Source: a virus. From it: DNA of 64,000 nucleotides. The notes under the pieces are model-generated. The model worked only from the letters and a program-made list of their open reading frames with translations, was not told the DNA's origin and did no database searches. Below, one piece after another: positions 9,927-64,000 of this stretch. The stretch spans positions 266,025 to 330,024 of the IMG/VR virus record IMGVR_UViG_3300042564_002819; one strand, written 5' to 3'. A program made the translations under genes and the position numbers. Positions within the stretch are counted from its first letter, which is position 1. Each line of letters starts with the position of its first letter.

Positions 9927-11966
9927 ATGAAAAAATTACTGTTATCGCCTGTTTGGAGCATTTTAGTATTAGTATTGTTGGCTTGGCTACAGTTTGCTAA
10001 TCCTAGTTTTTTAGAAAGTCTACAGCTACGTTACTTTGACCAACTTATAGTAAATCAAGAACCTGTAGCTAACAACGTTTACACAGTAAACATAGACGAA
10101 GCAAGTTTAAAGGCAAACGGACAATGGCCGTGGCCAAGAGGCGAATACGCCAAACTCATCGAAGAACTATATGCACGTGGTGCAGGATTAGTTGTGTTCA
10201 ACGTTCTAATGAGTGAAACAGATCGTGCAGGACAAGATGGCGTATTATCTACCACAATGAGCAACTATCCTGTTATAGTTACAATGTTGGGTACAGAGGA
10301 AAACAAAAATGAACCAATCAATCCTGGTGCTAGTATTATTAATAGCGACTACATCGATCTTATTCCTTCCGTGCCTGGCATCACAGCAAACGTGTCAGAT
10401 ATTGAACGTGCGGCTGTTGGATCAGGAATTGTTAACACTTTTCCAGAAATAGACGGTGTTACAAGACGTGCTCCACTAATACTAGAAAGCGGTGGAATAC
10501 TGTATCCTAACGTTACTATGGAAGTGCTTCGTGTTCTTGCCGGCGATCCAAGTTTCCAAATTAAACTGTCACCAATTGGTATAGACAAACTTCGTATTCC
10601 ACAGTATGGTGTATTACAAACAGATGAAATCGGCAGAGTTTGGTTAGATTGGAGTCAAAATTTTTCCAGTTACAGTGCTGCTGAGTTGCCCGATGATTTT
10701 GCAGGCGGTATAGTTTTTGTAGGACCAACAGCAGCCGGCATTACACAACCAATTGCAACAGCCGCAGGCGGTATTTGGCCGCATGAACTACAAGCTATAA
10801 TGCTAGGTACAGTGTTTAATCAAAGCAATATAAAACGTCCAGCATGGGCAACAGGTGCTGAATTGCTAGGATTTGTAATTTCTGGCATAGCTTTAATAAT
10901 AGCAGCACGTTGGACCTATGCGGGCATAGGAATATTTTTAATACTAGTTGGAACATCAATCGGTGGCAGCATCTATATGTTCTCTGCTTATAACTTCTTA
11001 CTAGACGGTTTTGTTCCGGCAGCATTCTTGTTGTTGGTAGGATTAGTAAGATATACTGTTAAGTTTGTAAGTGAGTTCTTACAAAAGCAAAAGATCAAAA
11101 AACAATTTGGTGGTTATGTGTCGCCTAAGATTGTTGATTTACTGGCTAAAGATCCGAGTGTAATAGAACGTGGAGTAAAGAAAAACATCTCTATTACTAT
11201 GACTGATCTGCGTGGCTTTACTCCTCTTGGAGAAAGTTACGGTGCTGATGTTGAAGGATTGCGTCAAATCATGAATGACTACATGGAAGCAATTACACAG
11301 CCAGTATTACGCAACGAAGGCACTATTATCAAATATATCGGTGATGCAAGTTTACATATAAACGGTGCACCATTTGATCAAGATAATCATGAATGTGTTG
11401 CGGTAAAAACTGCAATTGAAATGATAGATGCTGTAGAGGTGTTTAATGAAGAACTTAAAGCAAAAGGTAAGCCACCCGTTGGCATGGGTGCTGGTATCAA
11501 TACTGGTCCTACAGTTATTGGTAATATTGGCAGTTATAAGCGTTATGGTTATGACGTTTTAGGTGATAGTGTAAGCACAGCCGCACGTCTTGAAGGACAA
11601 ACCAAGCCCTATGGTGTTTTATTAATACTAGGACCAAAAACTGCCGAAGTAGCACGTCATTTCTATCACGTTGTAGAATTAGATCTATTAGCAGTCAAAG
11701 GTAAAACCGAAGCACTTCCTATTTACACAGTAATTTGGAGAGAAACACCCAACACTGAGTTTTGGCATCATCATGAAACATTCTTATCAGAATACAGATT
11801 AGCAAATTGGAAATCAGCTCTGGAACAAATTCAGTGGTTAAAAATTAATGGTCCTGTCACACTAGTCAAGTACTACGAGATGATGGAAGAACGTATTGCT
11901 GATCTATCTAAGAAAAAAATACAGCCCGGAAAATGGGACGGAGTATTCAGAGCTACAAGTAAATAA
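9927..11966 (+). CDS. CHASE2-sensor class III adenylate/guanylate cyclase
   Basis: N-terminal TM, then periplasmic CHASE2-like segment (NGQWPWPR); three further TM helices; cyclase core ITMTDLRGFT, KYIGDASL, GINTGPTVIGNIGS, GYDVLGDSVSTAARLEG. Confidence 0.75.
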   Translation: MKKLLLSPVWSILVLVLLAWLQFANPSFLESLQLRYFDQLIVNQEPVANNVYTVNIDEASLKANGQWPWPRGEYAKLIEELYARGAGLVVFNVLMSETDRAGQDGVLSTTMSNYPVIVTMLGTEENKNEPINPGASIINSDYIDLIPSVPGITANVSDIERAAVGSGIVNTFPEIDGVTRRAPLILESGGILYPNVTMEVLRVLAGDPSFQIKLSPIGIDKLRIPQYGVLQTDEIGRVWLDWSQNFSSYSAAELPDDFAGGIVFVGPTAAGITQPIATAAGGIWPHELQAIMLGTVFNQSNIKRPAWATGAELLGFVISGIALIIAARWTYAGIGIFLILVGTSIGGSIYMFSAYNFLLDGFVPAAFLLLVGLVRYTVKFVSEFLQKQKIKKQFGGYVSPKIVDLLAKDPSVIERGVKKNISITMTDLRGFTPLGESYGADVEGLRQIMNDYMEAITQPVLRNEGTIIKYIGDASLHINGAPFDQDNHECVAVKTAIEMIDAVEVFNEELKAKGKPPVGMGAGINTGPTVIGNIGSYKRYGYDVLGDSVSTAARLEGQTKPYGVLLILGPKTAEVARHFYHVVELDLLAVKGKTEALPIYTVIWRETPNTEFWHHHETFLSEYRLANWKSALEQIQWLKINGPVTLVKYYEMMEERIADLSKKKIQPGKWDGVFRATSK

Positions 11967-25718: not shown

Positions 25719-25795
25719 GCTCTCGTAGCTCAATGGATTAGAGCGTCGGTCTACGAAACCGAAGGTTAGAGGTTCGAGTCCTCTCGAGAGTGCCA
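25719..25795 (+). tRNA. tRNA-Arg(ACG)
   Basis: anticodon stem TCGGT/ACCGA, loop CTACGAA. Confidence 0.75.
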
Positions 25796-26156: not shown

Positions 26157-26600
26157 ATGAAAATCGAATATCGTAAAGGCAACATGTTTGAAACTGACAT
26201 CCTGCATATTGCACATGGCTGCAATGCACAAGGTGTTATGGGATCTGGCGTTGCTAAGATTGTAAAAGAAGATTACTTTGATGCATATCGTTTCTACGCA
26301 GAACAGTACGACGAGCATGGACTTAAATTAGGAGATGTGCAGTTTGTTCCTGCAAACGGCAAAGTAATCATCAATGCTGTTACGCAGAATCTGTACGGCA
26401 AAGACGGTCGTCGTTTTGTTAATTACGAAGCAGTTGCAGAGTGCATGAGAACTATTAATAGTGTACTTAAGCAAAGTGGCGAAACTCATGTTGCTATGCC
26501 GCAAATTGGTGCCGGCCTTGGTGGCGGCGATTGGCGTGTGATTGAAGCAATCATTGAAAGCGAAATGACAGACATTCAACCTGTGGTGTATGTACTGTGA
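26157..26600 (+). CDS. macro domain (ADP-ribose binding/hydrolase) protein
   Basis: GNMFETDILHIAHGCNAQGVMGSGVA and MPQIGAGLGGGDW match Macro-domain glycine-rich loops. Confidence 0.75.
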   Translation: MKIEYRKGNMFETDILHIAHGCNAQGVMGSGVAKIVKEDYFDAYRFYAEQYDEHGLKLGDVQFVPANGKVIINAVTQNLYGKDGRRFVNYEAVAECMRTINSVLKQSGETHVAMPQIGAGLGGGDWRVIEAIIESEMTDIQPVVYVL

Positions 26601-26773: not shown

Positions 26774-26905
26774 GGCTAGGAGACTATTTGCATTGTGCAT
26801 CGTGGGGCCTTTGTGTAGTAGACTGTTTCGTCTAACGGAGAGGACGCCGGTGGAGATCCGGAGATACAGGTTCGAGTCCTGTAGCAGTTTTGCTCCTAGC
26901 CAAAA
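26774..26905 (+). ncRNA. tRNA-like element with 9-bp terminal stem and canonical T arm (about 130 nt)
   Basis: GGCTAGGAG...CTCCTAGCC closing stem; ACAGG-TTCGAGT-CCTGT T arm; extra hairpin AGCA-GTTT-TGCT; too long for a tRNA. Confidence 0.3.
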
Positions 26906-29909: not shown

Positions 29910-30482
29910 ATGTGTAAGTTAGTTTTTGTTTATAGTTCTATGAATTCCGGTAAAAGCCTAGCTGTTCTTACCAAAAATTATATGTTAAAAGAAAAAGGTT
30001 TTAAGACTGTGCTCATGAAGCCGGCAGTTGATACTAGGACTGCGGCAACTGTGGCTACACGCTTAGGCTTAGAAGAGCCCTGTGTTGTACTAGGAACAAC
30101 TGATTTGCCTAGTCATACTATACTAAAATCAGCACACGACAAGCCTGATTTTATTATTGTTGACGAAGCACAGTTTTTAACAAGCGAACAAGTTTGGGAC
30201 CTAGCTGGCTTAGTCGACAACTGGGGCATAAACGTGTATTGCTATGGTCTACGACTTAACTGGCAAGGAGAGTTTTTTACAGGATCGGAAGCACTGATGA
30301 AAATTGCTGATGTGCTAGAACCAATCGAAAACTTCTGTCAAATAAATAAAGGAGCACTAGCATTCTTTCATATTAAAAAAGCAGGTGGCGATAATCCTGT
30401 AGAAGTTGGAATGGAAGACATGTATGACACTGCGTCTAGAAAAGCCTGGAAGCAGTGGTATGACACAAAAAGGCCTCTGTAG
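29910..30482 (+). CDS. tdk: thymidine kinase
   Basis: VFVYSSMNSGKSLAVL P-loop plus FIIVDEAQFL; extended TGTATAAT promoter upstream. Confidence 0.85.
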   Translation: MCKLVFVYSSMNSGKSLAVLTKNYMLKEKGFKTVLMKPAVDTRTAATVATRLGLEEPCVVLGTTDLPSHTILKSAHDKPDFIIVDEAQFLTSEQVWDLAGLVDNWGINVYCYGLRLNWQGEFFTGSEALMKIADVLEPIENFCQINKGALAFFHIKKAGGDNPVEVGMEDMYDTASRKAWKQWYDTKRPL

Positions 30483-30548
30483 CTCAATGGATAGAGCAGC
30501 AGACTTCGAATCTGTAGGTTGGGCGTTCGAGTCGCTCCAGGGGTACCA
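30473..30548 (+). tRNA. tRNA-Arg(TCG)
   Basis: starts inside the tdk stop codon; loop CTTCGAA. Confidence 0.7.
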
Positions 30549-30790: not shown

Positions 30791-30874
30791 GTCGCTGTGG
30801 TGTAATGGTAGCCACGACAGCTTGAGGTGCTGTTGCCGCAAGGCGTGGGAGTTCGAATCTCCCCAGCGACACCA
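30791..30874 (+). tRNA. tRNA-Leu(GAG)
   Basis: class II; acceptor GTCGCTG/CAGCGAC; loop TTGAGGT; variable arm TGCCGCAAGGCG. Confidence 0.75.
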
Positions 30875-55104: not shown

Positions 55105-55194
55105 GGAGAGTTGGTTGAGCGGCCGATAACACTCGTCTACTAAACGAGCAGGGGGTAATGCCCCTCGTGGGTTCGAATCCCACACTCTCCGCCA
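55105..55194 (+). tRNA. tRNA-Ser, class II, anticodon reads ACT (A34)
   Basis: colinear with E. coli tRNA-Ser; anticodon stem CTCGT/ACGAG with loop CTACTAA; variable arm CAGGGGGTAATGCCCCTCG. Confidence 0.65.
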
Positions 55195-56997: not shown

Positions 56998-57008
56998 GAA
57001 TAAGATAC

Positions 57009-57083
57009 GGGCTGTTGGTATAGTTGGGAACACAGTAGCTTTGCAAGCTTCAATCACCGGTTCGAACCCGGTACGGTCCACCA
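57009..57083 (+). tRNA. tRNA-Ala(TGC)
   Basis: anticodon arm GTAGC-TTTGCAA-GCTTC (one mismatch); T arm ACCGG-TTCGAAC-CCGGT. Confidence 0.6.
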
Positions 57084-57090
57084 AAATAAT

Positions 57091-57112
57091 GCGGGATTAA
57101 CTCAGTGGTAGA
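57091..57112 (+). pseudogene. duplicated 5' fragment of tRNA-Val (acceptor plus D arm)
   Basis: GCGGGATTAACTCAGTGGTAGA versus GCGGAATTAGCTCAGTGGTAGA at 57547. Confidence 0.5.
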
Positions 57113-57142
57113 TAAATACTTTAAATAGGAGATACTCTACCA

Positions 57143-57556
57143 ATGGCTAAAACGTTCAACTGTTTAAATTGTAGTAAAGAAAGTAAATGGAGTTATAGCA
57201 GCACTAACAAGTATTGCAGCGGCGATTGCTTTCAAGAACACAAATGGAAAACTGTAAAAAAACTTGAAGTAGAAGCAGGGTTAGTCAATGACGGAAGCCC
57301 TGCGTTAAAAAAATACCTTGTTGAAACAAAAGGTGAATGCTGTGAAGAGTGCAAAGTTGGCACTGTTTACAACGGAAAGCCATTAACACTAACTGTTGAT
57401 CATATTGATGGTAATAGTGATAATAACTTTCCAGGCAACCTTAGACTTTTATGTCCTAATTGTCACAGTCAAACTGAAACATACAAAGGACGAAACAAAA
57501 AGAATAGTGCTCGTTCTCGATATATGAGAAAGTATAGAGATAATTTGCGGAATTAG
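57143..57556 (+). CDS. HNH homing endonuclease with N-terminal zinc finger
   Basis: CLNCSK..CSGDC finger; HNH core DHIDGNSDNNFPGNLRLLCPNCH; stop codon lies inside the tRNA-Val 5' end. Confidence 0.7.
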   Translation: MAKTFNCLNCSKESKWSYSSTNKYCSGDCFQEHKWKTVKKLEVEAGLVNDGSPALKKYLVETKGECCEECKVGTVYNGKPLTLTVDHIDGNSDNNFPGNLRLLCPNCHSQTETYKGRNKKNSARSRYMRKYRDNLRN

Positions 57557-57621
57557 CTCAGTGGTAGAGCAGGGGTTTTACACACCTCAGGCCGGGAGTT
57601 CGACCCTCTCATTCCGCACCA
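57547..57621 (+). tRNA. tRNA-Val(TAC)
   Basis: perfect acceptor GCGGAAT/ATTCCGC; loop TTTACAC. Confidence 0.75.
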
Positions 57622-57732
57622 AGTTTAGACTGGATATAATCACCCCTTGTGAGGGTGGCCCAAGGACTCAGTAACGAGATACAGCGAAGGGTTGTTGGTC
57701 AAGGCTGCAAACAGCCCAGTCTAAAGCAATAC
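57622..57732 (+). ncRNA. about 110-nt structured spacer RNA
   Basis: closing helix TTTAGACTGG/CCAGTCTAAA; internal hairpins CACCC-CTTGTGA-GGGTG and GGCTG-CAAA-CAGCC. Confidence 0.3.
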
Positions 57733-57821
57733 GGACACTTGGCAGAGATGGATTATTGCACCGGTCTTGAAAACCGACGAACCGCAAGGTTCCCAGGGTT
57801 CGAATCCCTGAGTGTCCGCCA
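57733..57821 (+). tRNA. tRNA-Ser(TGA)
   Basis: class II; perfect acceptor GGACACT/AGTGTCC; loop CTTGAAA. Confidence 0.8.
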
Positions 57822-57897
57822 TAAGCACACTAGCATCAGGCTAGTCCAGACCGTAAGGTTAACGGTGACAAGCGGGGAGAGACCCGCACAAAAATAC

Positions 57898-57974: not shown

Positions 57975-58126
57975 AATTGAAAGGAAGGCTCATAGTTTAC
58001 GTTTAGCCCGTTACGACGGTTTGGGCGGAAAATGGTTGAGTCACGGCACGGGCGGGTCGGGGGCTGCGTGACGGCATTGAACTATGAAGCAGTTGTCGGT
58101 CTGCGTTAACAAACACCGTCAAAATT

Positions 58127-58590: not shown

Positions 58591-58666
58591 GTCGCGTTAG
58601 CAAAAGGTTAATGCGTGTCCTGTGCAAAGGACAAGGACGGTGGTTAAACTCCCCGACGCGACTCCA
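58591..58666 (+). tRNA. tRNA-Cys(GCA)
   Basis: perfect acceptor GTCGCGT/ACGCGAC; arm GTCCT-GTGCAAA-AGGAC. Confidence 0.7.
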
Positions 58667-59429: not shown

Positions 59430-59646
59430 CGATTAAACTGTTGATCTAACCTCGGACTCGAACAAATAGCCATAGGCTTAGGCAGGTAGTACGGCGGATT
59501 AGTGTTAGACAACATTCGGACCAAGTAATCCGTGAGGTCCAGCTATTAGTGATGGCGGGGACGAACAAGCGGCTGATTTGGTATCAGTCGTGAGGCGGTA
59601 AGCTGCACCATAGGTGTCGTAGGCCGGGACTTGTTCAATTTATTAT
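59430..59646 (+). ncRNA. about 215-nt structured spacer within the tRNA array
   Basis: no ORF; GC-rich paired segments (GGCGGATTAGTG..CCAAGTAATCCGTG). Confidence 0.25.
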
Positions 59647-59731: not shown

Positions 59732-59816
59732 GCGGTGTTGGACAAGATGGATTGTCAGAGGATTCTAAACCTTAGTAGGCAGGATCGTTACCTGTACGCC
59801 GCACCAATACACACAT
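59732..59816 (+). tRNA. non-canonical tRNA-like (possible pseudogene or suppressor)
   Basis: acceptor GCGGTGT/ACGCCGC and CCA present, but T loop ATCGTTA and anticodon arm irregular (loop region ATTCTAAA, could present TCT or CTA). Confidence 0.3.
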
Positions 59817-60719: not shown

Positions 60720-61301
60720 ATGAGTAAAATAGAGCACTTTTATCATCTTCCGCACTTCGAAGAAGAATGGTTTACATATTCGGCTTTATATTCTGATATG
60801 GTAGCTAAATTTCCATCCGGAAGTAAGTTTGTTGAAGTCGGTTGTTGGAAGGGAAGATCTGCTGCTTATATGTGTGTAGAAATTGCTAATTCAAAAAAAG
60901 ACATTGATTTTTATTGTGTTGACTTTTGGCATGTATCAGCAGAGCATGAAATAGAAGAACCCCATCTAAAAAATTTGTATGAAATTTTTCTTTCTAATAT
61001 GAAACCAGTTGAAGCTTTTTATAAGCCAATGAAAATACCGTCGTCTGATGCTGCAAAAAAATTTAAAGACGAAAGTTTAGATTTTGTTTTTATTGATGCT
61101 GGACATCAATACGATGAAGTAAAAGATGATATTCTTGCATGGTATCCAAAAATTAAAAAAGGTGGCATACTAGCAGGACATGATTTTTATCCAACTGAGC
61201 CAACTTGGGGAGATGTTTCTAAAGTAGTAAACGAACTTTTTCCAAATAATTATGAAGTTTTAATAGAACAAAGTTGCTTTCTAGTAAATAAGCCGGTATA
61301 G
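60720..61301 (+). CDS. class I SAM-dependent methyltransferase-like
   Basis: KFVEVGCWKGRSAAYM (motif I-like) and FVFIDAGHQYDEV (motif IV-like). Confidence 0.5.
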   Translation: MSKIEHFYHLPHFEEEWFTYSALYSDMVAKFPSGSKFVEVGCWKGRSAAYMCVEIANSKKDIDFYCVDFWHVSAEHEIEEPHLKNLYEIFLSNMKPVEAFYKPMKIPSSDAAKKFKDESLDFVFIDAGHQYDEVKDDILAWYPKIKKGGILAGHDFYPTEPTWGDVSKVVNELFPNNYEVLIEQSCFLVNKPV

Positions 61302-61365
61302 CTGAGTGGTTTAGCAGCTGATTAGTAATCAGCTGACGGGAGTTCGATTCTCTCTACCGGCACCA
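61292..61365 (+). tRNA. tRNA-Thr-like, anticodon reads AGT (A34)
   Basis: acceptor GCCGGTA/TACCGGC (Thr-like); perfect anticodon stem GCTGA/TCAGC with loop TTAGTAA. Confidence 0.6.
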
Positions 61366-62230: not shown

Positions 62231-62992
62231 ATGAATTATCACATAAAAAACTTTATTATCCCTATACATGTCTTATTTTTAGTATCACTAATTGGTATGT
62301 ATTTAAATATAATCGATTTTCATATTTGGTTATTTTTAATAGGGTGGACTTTGATCTATGGGCTAGGTCTTGTTGTAGGATTTCATAAATTGTTATCCCA
62401 TAGCTCTTTTAAAACAAACAAATACATATCTTATGTGTTAGCTTACTTAGGATGCTTAGGAATTAGCGGATCACCTATATGGTGGGCTGCTATACATAGA
62501 GGACATCATCATGCTCATACTGAGACTGAAAAAGACCTTCAAAGTCCACGTCGTGGATGGCTTACATCTTACATAGGTTGGCAGTTTGGTGAAGAAACAA
62601 GTAAAATAAGTTTAAAGTATGCATCTGATTTAATAAAAGATCCTTTTTATCTTTTTTTACACAAGAATTATAGATTAGTTGTTTGGAGTACAGTGATTAT
62701 TGTTGGTATGTTGTCACCATCTGTTGCAGTTTCATTATTAATATTTCCGATGATTGCAGCACACCATGGAGAAAATATTACCAATTCATTTGGTCATAGC
62801 AGGTTTGCTGGTTACAGAAATTTTAATACCAACGACGACACTATAAATAACCCATTGTTAGCATTTATAACTTGGGGTCAGCTTTTGCATAACAATCATC
62901 ATGCTAAGCCAAATAACGATAGTTTTGCCATTAAATGGTTTGAATTTGATCCAACTTCTCCTTTTGTATGGATTTTAAAAAAACTAAAATAG
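62231..62992 (+). CDS. membrane fatty-acid desaturase (acyl-lipid/acyl-CoA Delta9-type)
   Basis: three His boxes HKLLSH, HRGHHHAH, HNNHHAKP and four TM segments. Confidence 0.7.
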   Translation: MNYHIKNFIIPIHVLFLVSLIGMYLNIIDFHIWLFLIGWTLIYGLGLVVGFHKLLSHSSFKTNKYISYVLAYLGCLGISGSPIWWAAIHRGHHHAHTETEKDLQSPRRGWLTSYIGWQFGEETSKISLKYASDLIKDPFYLFLHKNYRLVVWSTVIIVGMLSPSVAVSLLIFPMIAAHHGENITNSFGHSRFAGYRNFNTNDDTINNPLLAFITWGQLLHNNHHAKPNNDSFAIKWFEFDPTSPFVWILKKLK

Positions 62993-63127: not shown

Positions 63128-64000
63128 TAACTTAACTGCAATAATCAACAGTTTAGCGAAAGGCTAAAGATTGTGGTTGTGCTGAGTAATTAACAGTTTA
63201 AATCAGCAAGTGATGCGTGATTAGGTAAACTGTTGTTTATTGCAGTTTTTAAGATGGGCGGCTTAGCGTCCACGTAAGGGTAAGTGCGGTAACGCACCCA
63301 AAGGCAGGTTTCCTATAAACTGCCGCCAGCAATGGTCCACCTAAGCAAGCCTGAACTAAGGTTGACTCGGTTTAACCCGAAAGCAACCTCCGTCCTTAGG
63401 CGGGCGGTAGGCAGTAAGTTAGAGTTGTAGTCCGAAAGGATAGGCACAGAGCCGGTCGGTGAGTGCTAAGAGGCTGTGGTGGCTGAACTGCAACATACCA
63501 AACTAACGAATGCTGAAGGTTAACAGGTAGCTACACTGTCTGAGCCCGCAAGCAAAGGCATGGTAGCATCACAAGAGTGGAAGGGTTAGGCCCCGGATAC
63601 TTGAAGTGACGTTGAGTAGCTCGCAAGGCAAAAGACAGTCGGTGTGTTGTATACTGTATCTAACAAGGTATGGTGCAACTGGGACAGCACATCGAAGTAG
63701 GTTCGCAATATTGCATAACGGTAATGCAATCGTCTTATGAAACGATGGATTGTAGGTTCAACTCCTACTATTGAAACAAAAGCGAAAGACTGTCCCGGTA
63801 CGTTGTGAAAGGTGGTTAATGCCACACTCGCAAGAGAATGTGGTCTACGGATGCTCGCAAGGCTGATGTAGTTGTTCGGAAAGATAGCGTAAGGGTTTAG
63901 CGACTCTGAACTGCTCGCAAGGCAGACGAAGGATAGAAGGACGAGTAGCAACGTGCGACGAGAGAAACGCCACTCTCCAAAAAAGGCACCACTGGGAGAT
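63128..64000 (+). ncRNA. large structured ncRNA (partial, runs off window end)
   Basis: more than 870 nt with no credible ORF; many GNRA/GAAA-type loops (CCGAAAGG, CCCGAAAGCAACC, CGCAAG); 10-mer CTCGCAAGGC repeated 3 times plus CCCGCAAGCA. Confidence 0.5.

Follow-up and report, generated by a model that had tools for sequence, protein, structure and literature searches.

Why should the transfer RNA (tRNA) array of a phage contain a small nuclease gene wedged between a fragment of tRNA-Val and a complete tRNA-Val? The question is raised by positions 57091-57621 of a 64,000-nucleotide stretch of viral DNA (positions 266,025 to 330,024 of IMG/VR record IMGVR_UViG_3300042564_002819), the whole of which we refer to as the window. 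Here a 22-nucleotide (nt) piece resembling the 5' end of a tRNA-Val gene is followed by an HNH endonuclease gene that runs into an intact tRNA-Val(UAC). A first-pass annotation had read this arrangement as the scar of a homing endonuclease insertion that regenerated its target through target-site duplication. We consider it probable that the unit is instead a mobile cassette, made up of a leader, the HNH gene and its own tRNA-Val, and that this cassette sits inside a broken resident gene.

The 22-mer, GCGGGATTAACTCAGTGGTAGA, occupies positions 57091-57112 on the forward strand and begins 7 nt past the CCA of tRNA-Ala(tgc) (57009..57083, forward strand; ARAGORN and Rfam), which is the normal spacing to the next tRNA in this tightly packed array. 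It matches the first 22 nt of tRNA-Val(UAC) at 20 positions, with mismatches at tRNA positions 5 and 10, and spans the acceptor 5' strand and the D stem and loop (positions 1-22/23), ending in ...GGTAGA. Against a set of 253 distinct tRNAs, drawn from related loci as well as from the window, its closest match was the intact tRNA-Val(tac) of a related locus, L025 (21/22), the tRNA-Val of the window ranking second. The 22-mer is also the only strong partial match of tRNA-Val within the 2.5-kb neighbourhood (E 6e-4). Orthologous stumps with an identical end point are present in L020, L028, L029, L030 and L031, and a generic tRNA hidden Markov model (HMM) detected stumps of other alleles in L013, L016 and L020; a BLAST search for partial copies of the resident tRNA around 13 IMG/VR homologues recovered only that of the window. 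These alignments show the 22-mer to be a genuine tRNA-Val remnant, namely the 5' end of the former resident tRNA-Val(UAC).

The HNH gene is the only long open reading frame (ORF) of the unit. It occupies 57143..57556 on the forward strand, with its ATG at 57143 and a TAG stop at 57554-57556, and encodes 137 amino acids (aa) comprising an N-terminal zinc ribbon and an HNH domain, as had been annotated. Pfam HNH (PF01844) is matched over residues 67-110 at 25.2 bits, which passes the cut-off of 21.4, and PHROG HNH families are matched down to 5e-25. The best PDB match by sequence is I-HmuI (E 0.014). The AF2 model of the protein is confident, with a pLDDT of 85.9, and a structure search gave weak matches (best E 0.027), of which the top-ranked were all HNH nucleases. 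Residues C67, C70, D86, H87, N99, C104, C107 and H108, which form both CxxC zinc pairs and the catalytic D86-H87...N99...H108 set of the beta-beta-alpha-metal core of His-Me finger enzymes, are invariant in 43 homologues and in 19 homologues whose genomic context was checked. The dN/dS is 0.05-0.16 where measurable, dS being saturated elsewhere, which points to strong purifying selection on the gene. Given these ratios and the invariant catalytic and zinc residues, the HNH gene is to all appearances functional.

The intact tRNA-Val(UAC) that follows (57547..57621, forward strand; ARAGORN, Rfam 66.9 bits) starts GCGGAATTAGCTCAGTGGTAGA and would be the functional replacement copy linked to the HNH gene. 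The two genes overlap by 10 nt (57547-57556); the last three sense codons and the stop of the HNH ORF fall in tRNA-Val, and the TAG corresponds to U8-A9-G10 of the tRNA, confirming the first reading of this junction. Elsewhere in the window, a thymidine kinase ORF (29910-30482) ends 10 nt inside tRNA-Arg(tcg) (30473-30548).

Relatives of the locus were drawn from IMG/VR and public assemblies and are numbered with the prefix L. Megablast of the window against 50,697 phage records returned only isolated tRNA matches and no close or cultured relative. Four loci (L020, L021, L032 and L040) share gene order with the window at 70-85% nucleotide identity, and four short contigs (L028, L029, L030 and L031) encode HNH proteins 64-83% identical to that of the window. 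Among these, five distinct HNH-bearing relatives (L020/L032, L028, L029, L030 and L031) have the same order of elements, namely a tRNA-Val 5' piece ending in ...GGTAGA, a leader, the HNH gene and an intact tRNA-Val(tac), and in all five the HNH ORF ends within the intact tRNA. In L020/L032, L029, L030 and L031, four of the five, a 3' tRNA piece lies a few bases past the intact tRNA. The structure is nested, with a 5' stump and a 3' stump enclosing the leader, the HNH gene and a complete tRNA-Val; it is neither a tandem duplication nor a pair of direct repeats.

The paired stumps can be compared with intact alleles. In L029 the 5' stump is identical to positions 1-22 of the window tRNA-Val (22/22) and the 3' stump to its positions 51-76 (26/26). 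In L030 the 5' stump is identical to positions 1-22 of the L025 tRNA-Val (22/22) and the 3' stump to its last 14 nt (14/14). The sole difference between the two stump pairs is compensatory and affects the 5:68 base pair, which is A-T in L029 and G-C in L030. Dead fragments would not keep pairing by drift, and the retained 5:68 pairing therefore indicates that each stump pair came from a functional allele. Together the two stumps of the relatives lack the anticodon arm (positions ~24-43 or more). The nested order, combined with the observation that the stumps and the intact copy represent different tRNA-Val alleles, suggests that the cassette brought its own tRNA. This argues against a target-site duplication produced by the chemistry of insertion, although the broader proposal of a freestanding homing-type endonuclease gene with a functional tRNA regenerated next to it fits well. 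Nor does the scar appear to be fresh, since the arrangement is shared with relatives that are saturated at synonymous sites, and the 3' part of the stump belongs to a leader fully conserved with L020.

Several comparisons indicate that the cassette has moved. In L029 and L020 the stretch that starts at CAGTGGTAGATAAATAC, takes in the HNH gene and ends with the CCA of its tRNA-Val is ~94% identical. Outside these boundaries the upstream sequences are unrelated and the 5' pieces match at 17/22, and past the CCA the spacers are unrelated, the 3' pieces are partly similar and the tRNA-Ser genes differ. The phylogeny of the HNH proteins is discordant with the type of the linked tRNA-Val, in that the L028 protein groups with that of the window and its tRNA-Val is of the L031 type. 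The upstream context of the cassette also varies between a tRNA-Ala, an extra 146-aa ORF and no tRNA at all. The window tRNA-Ala is 100% identical to the L022 copy and 98.8% identical to the L028 copy, with different sequence following it in each. L022 and L025 have a tRNA-Val with no HNH gene beside it, and in the comparison with relatives lacking the insertion, which the first-pass annotation had recommended, the intact tRNA-Val of L025 proved to be the one that matches the stump most closely. With the HNH ORF standing alone between tRNA sequences, free of intron or intein, with presence and absence both found (L022, L025) and with sharp cassette boundaries (L029/L020), the sequences identify the gene as a freestanding homing-type endonuclease gene tied to tRNA-Val.

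How might such a cassette spread? We infer that the HNH protein cuts tRNA-Val(UAC) genes in co-infecting relatives without the cassette, and that repair then copies the cassette in, using homology in the D arm on the left (CAGTGGTAGA) and in the tRNA on the right. Cleavage would be expected in the D-arm/anticodon-arm region, and the linked allele should be immune. Since the carried tRNA-Val would keep the phage supplied, we propose that the insertion costs nothing. Under this scheme the 22-mer would be the left stump of the former resident tRNA-Val(UAC), with the left junction directly after D-arm position 22/23. The right junction of the window would have been resolved inside or beyond the tRNA, leaving the 3' stump lost. 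The variability of the right junctions among the relatives may reflect illegitimate joining or the later decay of 3' stumps.

A number of observations weigh against a mobile cassette and have to be set beside this evidence. Between the window and L020 the cassette is 78% identical and the backbone 80-85%; such similar divergence fits vertical descent, and the copy in the window may therefore have been vertically inherited for a long time. The window has no 3' stump, and an exact empty site for its own backbone was not found among the relatives, L022 and L025 having other tRNAs after their identical or similar tRNA-Ala. The allele broken in L029 is, in its remaining parts, identical to the allele linked to the window HNH gene, although the tRNA-Val of the cassette itself would have to escape cutting. 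The overlap of the ORF with the tRNA is not specific to endonuclease genes, as the thymidine kinase ORF demonstrates. The hairpin predicted in the window leader, discussed below, is not significant by its folding energy (-9.8 kcal/mol, z -0.7). Finally, as a debris control, the generic tRNA HMM found many tRNA fragments in these arrays far from any HNH gene; the presence of a fragment is thus weak evidence by itself and we dropped it as an argument. The case for a remnant and a cassette was built on the allele identity and complementarity of the paired stumps and on the cassette boundaries.

Alternatively, the unit could be an immobile relic, in which one ancient illegitimate recombination placed the HNH gene in an ancestral tRNA-Val, followed by vertical descent with recombination and gene conversion among the tRNAs, the HNH protein possibly having another role now. 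The window and L020 arrangements have diverged about as much as their backbones, as such a history would predict, and tRNA arrays are heavily rearranged and littered with fragments irrespective of HNH genes. We nevertheless regard a relic as unlikely, though it is the most serious of the alternatives. It does not readily explain a cassette that is ~94% identical in L029 and L020 in unrelated flanks, or the different upstream contexts. It is also difficult to reconcile with stumps that are identical to intact alleles and preserve a compensatory pair, with strong purifying selection on the HNH gene, or with an independent filled and empty pair for an analogous cassette in tRNA-Ser, described below.

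The mobile cassette that we favour includes a leader (57103..57145, forward strand) that contains GATAAATA at 57111-57118, a Shine-Dalgarno sequence (SD), AGGAG, at 57127-57131, and the start codon. Only 30 nt separate the 22-mer from the ATG. Over its 43 nt, from CAGTGG in the stump to the ATG, the leader is identical between the window and L020 (43/43), compared with ~77% identity and saturated synonymous sites in the ORF. A search of the window for a repeated leader or promoter motif found the leader and its motif to be unique. The leader is predicted to fold into a hairpin (57106..57142, forward strand) with its 5' arm, TGGTAGA (57106-57112), in the D arm of the stump and its 3' arm, TCTACCA (57136-57142), between the SD and the AUG; GATAAATA and the SD lie in its loop. 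For each of the seven leaders compared, pairing is predicted between ...GGTAGA and a TCTACC that follows the SD and precedes the AUG. Given that the window hairpin is not significant by energy, the case for the structure comes from the relatives, where stronger hairpins are predicted in L028 (-17.9 kcal/mol), L031 (-14.6 kcal/mol, z -5.6) and L001 (-22.1 kcal/mol, z -6.3), and extra or compensatory pairs occur in L030, L031 and L001.

We propose that the ...GGTAGA of the stump has been retained because of its pairing with TCTACC in the interval from the ribosome-binding site to the AUG. In transcripts that read through the tRNA array the hairpin would mask translation initiation. As the ORF ends inside the tRNA, cleavage by RNase P at G1 (57547) would fall in the third-last sense codon, and expression would be limited through the loss of the stop codon. 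By analogy with T4 SegB and the T5 F-Tfl enzymes, for which both devices have been proposed (PMC2330249), the hairpin and the placement of the stop codon within the tRNA probably hold back expression of the HNH gene. The GATAAATA motif is present in the loop of most leaders, including the leaders of both Ser cassettes described below. The sequence ATAAATA is enriched upstream of gene starts in the window (10 of 22 copies, against a background of 4%), but for several of them the distance to the start codon is too short for a promoter, which makes a late promoter no more than a lead. Sigma-70 promoter and terminator scans of the window were at background level.

The position of the hairpin raises a second alternative, that the 22-mer is not derived from a tRNA and represents the 5' arm of the endonuclease leader together with an upstream part that happens to resemble a D arm. 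A GTAGA(CC)/(GG)TCTAC hairpin does precede the distant homologues L001, L041 and L044, and in L041 and L044 no acceptor-like sequence is recognisable. However, the first 12 nt of the 22-mer lie outside the hairpin, match the acceptor and D stem of intact tRNA-Val at 11-12 of 12 positions, and pair with the 3' stumps in the relatives, and the stump begins at the canonical tRNA spacing after tRNA-Ala. We therefore hold a leader-only origin to be highly improbable.

Still less credence can be given to a transposon-style target-site duplication of 22 bp, or to an intron or split tRNA, even though the ORF lies between two near-identical 22-mers. On the right-hand side stands a complete tRNA of another allele, and the 3' stumps of the relatives lie downstream of the intact tRNA, so that the repeats are nested rather than direct. 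The 57091-57621 unit has no transposase or integrase gene, and none of the tRNA-array ORFs scanned against Pfam encodes an integrase. Over 57000-57750 no group I or group II intron model matched even at E<=10, and over 54-64 kb none matched at E<=0.1, in agreement with the earlier impression that no group I intron is present, and splicing could not rebuild a tRNA from stumps that jointly lack the anticodon arm. The missing anticodon arm, the complete tRNA in the insert and the absence of an intron match together exclude an intron, a split tRNA and a transposon. We also considered three established classes of element. An endonuclease-bearing group I intron in a tRNA does not correspond to a junction in the D arm after position 22/23 with a complete tRNA within the insert. 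A transposable element with target-site duplication does not correspond to a unit whose only long ORF is the HNH gene and whose right 'repeat' is a whole tRNA of another allele. An integrase-mediated, tRNA-targeting island does not correspond to a unit that lacks an integrase and in which the duplicated part is the 5' end.

That a random 22-mer came to resemble the conserved 5' part of a tRNA by chance is hardly conceivable, and the first-pass annotation had also thought it unlikely. D arms and D loops are generic, and the next best tRNA 5' end in the window, that of Gly(gcc), still matches at 18/22; yet five relatives keep the fragment in the corresponding place, and tRNA-Val alleles match it best, allele-specific acceptor stem included.

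If the HNH gene is mobile with its tRNA, how general is the association? At E<=1e-20 the window protein has 987 homologues. All IMG/VR homologues at or above 47% identity, representing 11 distinct lineages, lie no more than 230 nt from a tRNA-Val(UAC), as do those of three additional lineages, in part on contigs of 336-512 kb. Besides the five relatives with the full layout, about 20 further HNH homologues adjoin a tRNA-Val(UAC), in orientations that include same strand upstream, convergent and divergent. Those on the same strand all end inside the tRNA, at positions 8-10, 13-15 or 19-21, and in the convergent case the ORF runs 43 nt antisense into the tRNA and stops at the complement of the anticodon loop. 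In L013 the HNH gene is inverted between an antisense tRNA 5' stump and the intact tRNA-Val. In L047 and L048 a sigma-70-like promoter match precedes the HNH/tRNA-Val pair, a hairpin follows it, and no further tRNA is found within 1.5 kb. The distant homologues of L016, L017 and a T5-like phage adjoin tRNA-Thr(UGU), two full-length ones being 39-41% identical to the window protein. A metagenome-wide scan for the junction-plus-hairpin pattern recovered only the L020 contig again and unrelated matches. We also observed several other HNH genes, of the HNH_5 type and a 147-aa type, interleaved among the tRNAs of L041/L042 (contigs up to 512 kb) and L044/L045, in addition to the one linked to tRNA-Val.

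Two further cassettes combine a different nuclease with a tRNA-Ser. In L031 (677-1556) a cassette of ~790 nt contains a leader, a 215-aa endonuclease gene, a complete tRNA-Ser(UGA) and 13 nt. It interrupts a tRNA-Ser(UGA) after U33, replacing 10 nt of the anticodon loop and stem. The same tRNA-Ser(UGA) is intact in L020 (minus strand; reverse-complement coordinates 10716-10807), with flanks ~98% identical, and the two loci form a clean pair of filled and empty sites. The 215-aa protein matches PHROG endonuclease families, and its PD-(D/E)XK Pfam match is below threshold. In L028 (1466-2050) a PDDEXK_5 ORF (1553-1918) is followed by an intact tRNA-Ser(GCU), with the TGA stop of the ORF at tRNA positions 3-5. 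The flanking Ser stumps, 5' GGAGCGT... and 3' ...ACGCTCCGCCA, have complementary acceptor strands, and the same acceptor stem is present in the intact tRNA-Ser(GCU) of L020. In L022 the sequence directly upstream of tRNA-Ser(gct) matches the 3' end of the L028 PDDEXK_5 ORF. A PDB sequence search with this ORF gave no match.

The pairings are thus HNH with tRNA-Val(UAC), PDDEXK_5 with tRNA-Ser(GCU), and the 215-aa protein of PHROG endonuclease families with tRNA-Ser(UGA). On balance we lean towards the view that break-and-replace homing cassettes form a class in phage tRNA arrays, with at least three unrelated endonuclease types that each carry a complete copy of the tRNA gene they disrupt, and that in the HNH-Val cassette the D arm of the stump has been recruited into a repressor hairpin. 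The tRNA array of the window had also been described as a homing hotspot. At the level of the phage group this description stands, as further nuclease and tRNA cassettes occur in the relatives, but for this array its support is indirect: no other recognisable endonuclease gene was found among the 20 ORFs of the two tRNA arrays in the window.

The window as a whole, which belongs to a 136.6-kb metagenomic contig, carries 30 tRNA genes together with rIIA/rIIB, RNA ligase and NAD-salvage genes, and a number of other features in it are unusual. At 63639-64000 there is a strong match to GOLLD RNA (RF02032) at 136 bits (E 1.3e-36), covering positions 1-336 of the 416-position model before the window ends, and an ARAGORN 'tRNA-??? 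(tatg)' call at 63704-63777 falls within it. A tRNA-like sequence missed by ARAGORN, 59733-59806, has the acceptor GCGGTGT/ACGCCGC followed by ACCA and an unusual T loop; its anticodon loop, TTCTAAA, possibly presents a CUA (amber-reading) anticodon, and the generic tRNA HMM matched its 3' half only. Other unusual anticodons, with A34 or rare, were called by ARAGORN at 55105-55194, 61292-61365, 25719-25795, 26820-26891, 30791-30874 and 58591-58666, and comprise Ser(act), Thr(agt), Arg(acg), two Leu(gag) and a 'tRNA-???' with a non-standard anticodon loop.

We also noted GC-rich non-coding spacers between tRNA genes, at 57622-57732, 57822-57897, 57975-58126 and 59430-59646. The first has a 10-bp closing stem, TTTAGACTGG/CCAGTCTAAA, and conservation of the second reaches 93% in L022 and 87% in L025. 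Rfam gave no match to these spacers at E<=0.1. They may be small structured RNAs released when the tRNA precursor is processed. The auxiliary genes that are unusual in a phage (54222-54620; 49-54 kb; 62231-62992; 26157-26600) include a Ribosomal_L12-like ORF, NAMPT and a CTP_transf_like+NUDIX ORF (possibly NadR-like), the latter two belonging to NAD salvage, as well as Band_7, a fatty-acid desaturase, a macro domain and an ADP-ribosylglycohydrolase.

How does the HNH cassette compare with known systems? That homing endonuclease genes reside in phage tRNA clusters is already established from T4 SegB and the T5 F-Tfl enzymes. SegB is a freestanding GIY-YIG homing endonuclease of the T4 tRNA cluster that cuts tRNA genes, recognises a generic T-psi-C motif of many tRNAs, and drives the co-inheritance of itself and neighbouring tRNA genes (PMC2330249). 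A 5' hairpin has been proposed to occlude its translation initiation, and its stop codon to be separated from the ORF by tRNA maturation (PMC2330249). The window HNH gene is similarly embedded in a phage tRNA array, with a 5' hairpin and a stop in a tRNA, but unlike SegB its family is of the HNH type and is tied to a single isoacceptor, tRNA-Val(UAC). The nested structure, the stumps of the broken target and the dedicated replacement tRNA are features of the window family and are not described for SegB in the portions of that account drawn on here (PMC2330249). In T5, the endonuclease ORFs F-TflI/II/IV lie among tRNA genes, and tRNA processing was proposed to limit their expression (Akulenko et al. 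2004, as cited in PMC2330249); the ~40% identical homologue of the window protein in T5-like phages abuts tRNA-Thr(UGU), not tRNA-Val. In the T4 genes I-TevI and mobE a hairpin covers the ribosome-binding region, with a late-promoter-like motif in or at the hairpin, and transcripts starting there would lack the 5' arm (PMC2330249). The window hairpin likewise would cover the ribosome-binding region and has an ATAAATA-type, late-promoter-like motif in its loop. It differs in that its 5' arm would be supplied by the D arm of the broken target, with GATAAATA as the putative promoter.

Surveys have recorded HNH genes within tRNA arrays (PMC6409571, PMC8421152). Within the literature covered, which is incomplete, we found no earlier account of such a nested structure, of a replacement tRNA dedicated to the cassette, of stumps in pairs or of a stump recruited into a leader hairpin.

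The coexistence of such nucleases with essential or useful tRNA genes, and the mosaic arrays full of pseudo-tRNA pieces, have been poorly explained so far. An invader that carries a spare copy of its target could insert into that gene free of cost, and each nuclease family would be linked to one isoacceptor. The scheme predicts that the hairpin gates translation of the nuclease and that processing by RNase P limits it. If true generally, break and replacement would be a main force behind the reshuffling of arrays, the debris of tRNA genes and the turnover of tRNA alleles in large phages. The family of 987 homologues may prove useful for obtaining sequence-specific nucleases directed at conserved tRNA genes. 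For annotators, short tRNA fragments beside small nuclease ORFs would be informative scars and not noise.

Two other kinds of insertion provide a final comparison. Genomic islands and prophages that target tRNA genes use a tyrosine integrase and an att site and duplicate the 3' part of the tRNA, and the intact tRNA survives. The window element resembles them in carrying tRNA sequence, in the survival of an intact gene and in the partial duplicate that is left. It is unlike them in having no integrase, in carrying a complete tRNA, and in leaving behind a 5' stump (with a 3' stump in the relatives). In Aeromonas phage Aeh1, nrdA is split by mobE, an intron-less insertion ('genes in pieces') after which both halves are functional as separate polypeptides. 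The window unit would share with it the intron-less insertion of an endonuclease gene into a functional gene. Unlike in Aeh1, the broken tRNA here is dead, and its function would be restored by the complete spare copy in the cassette.

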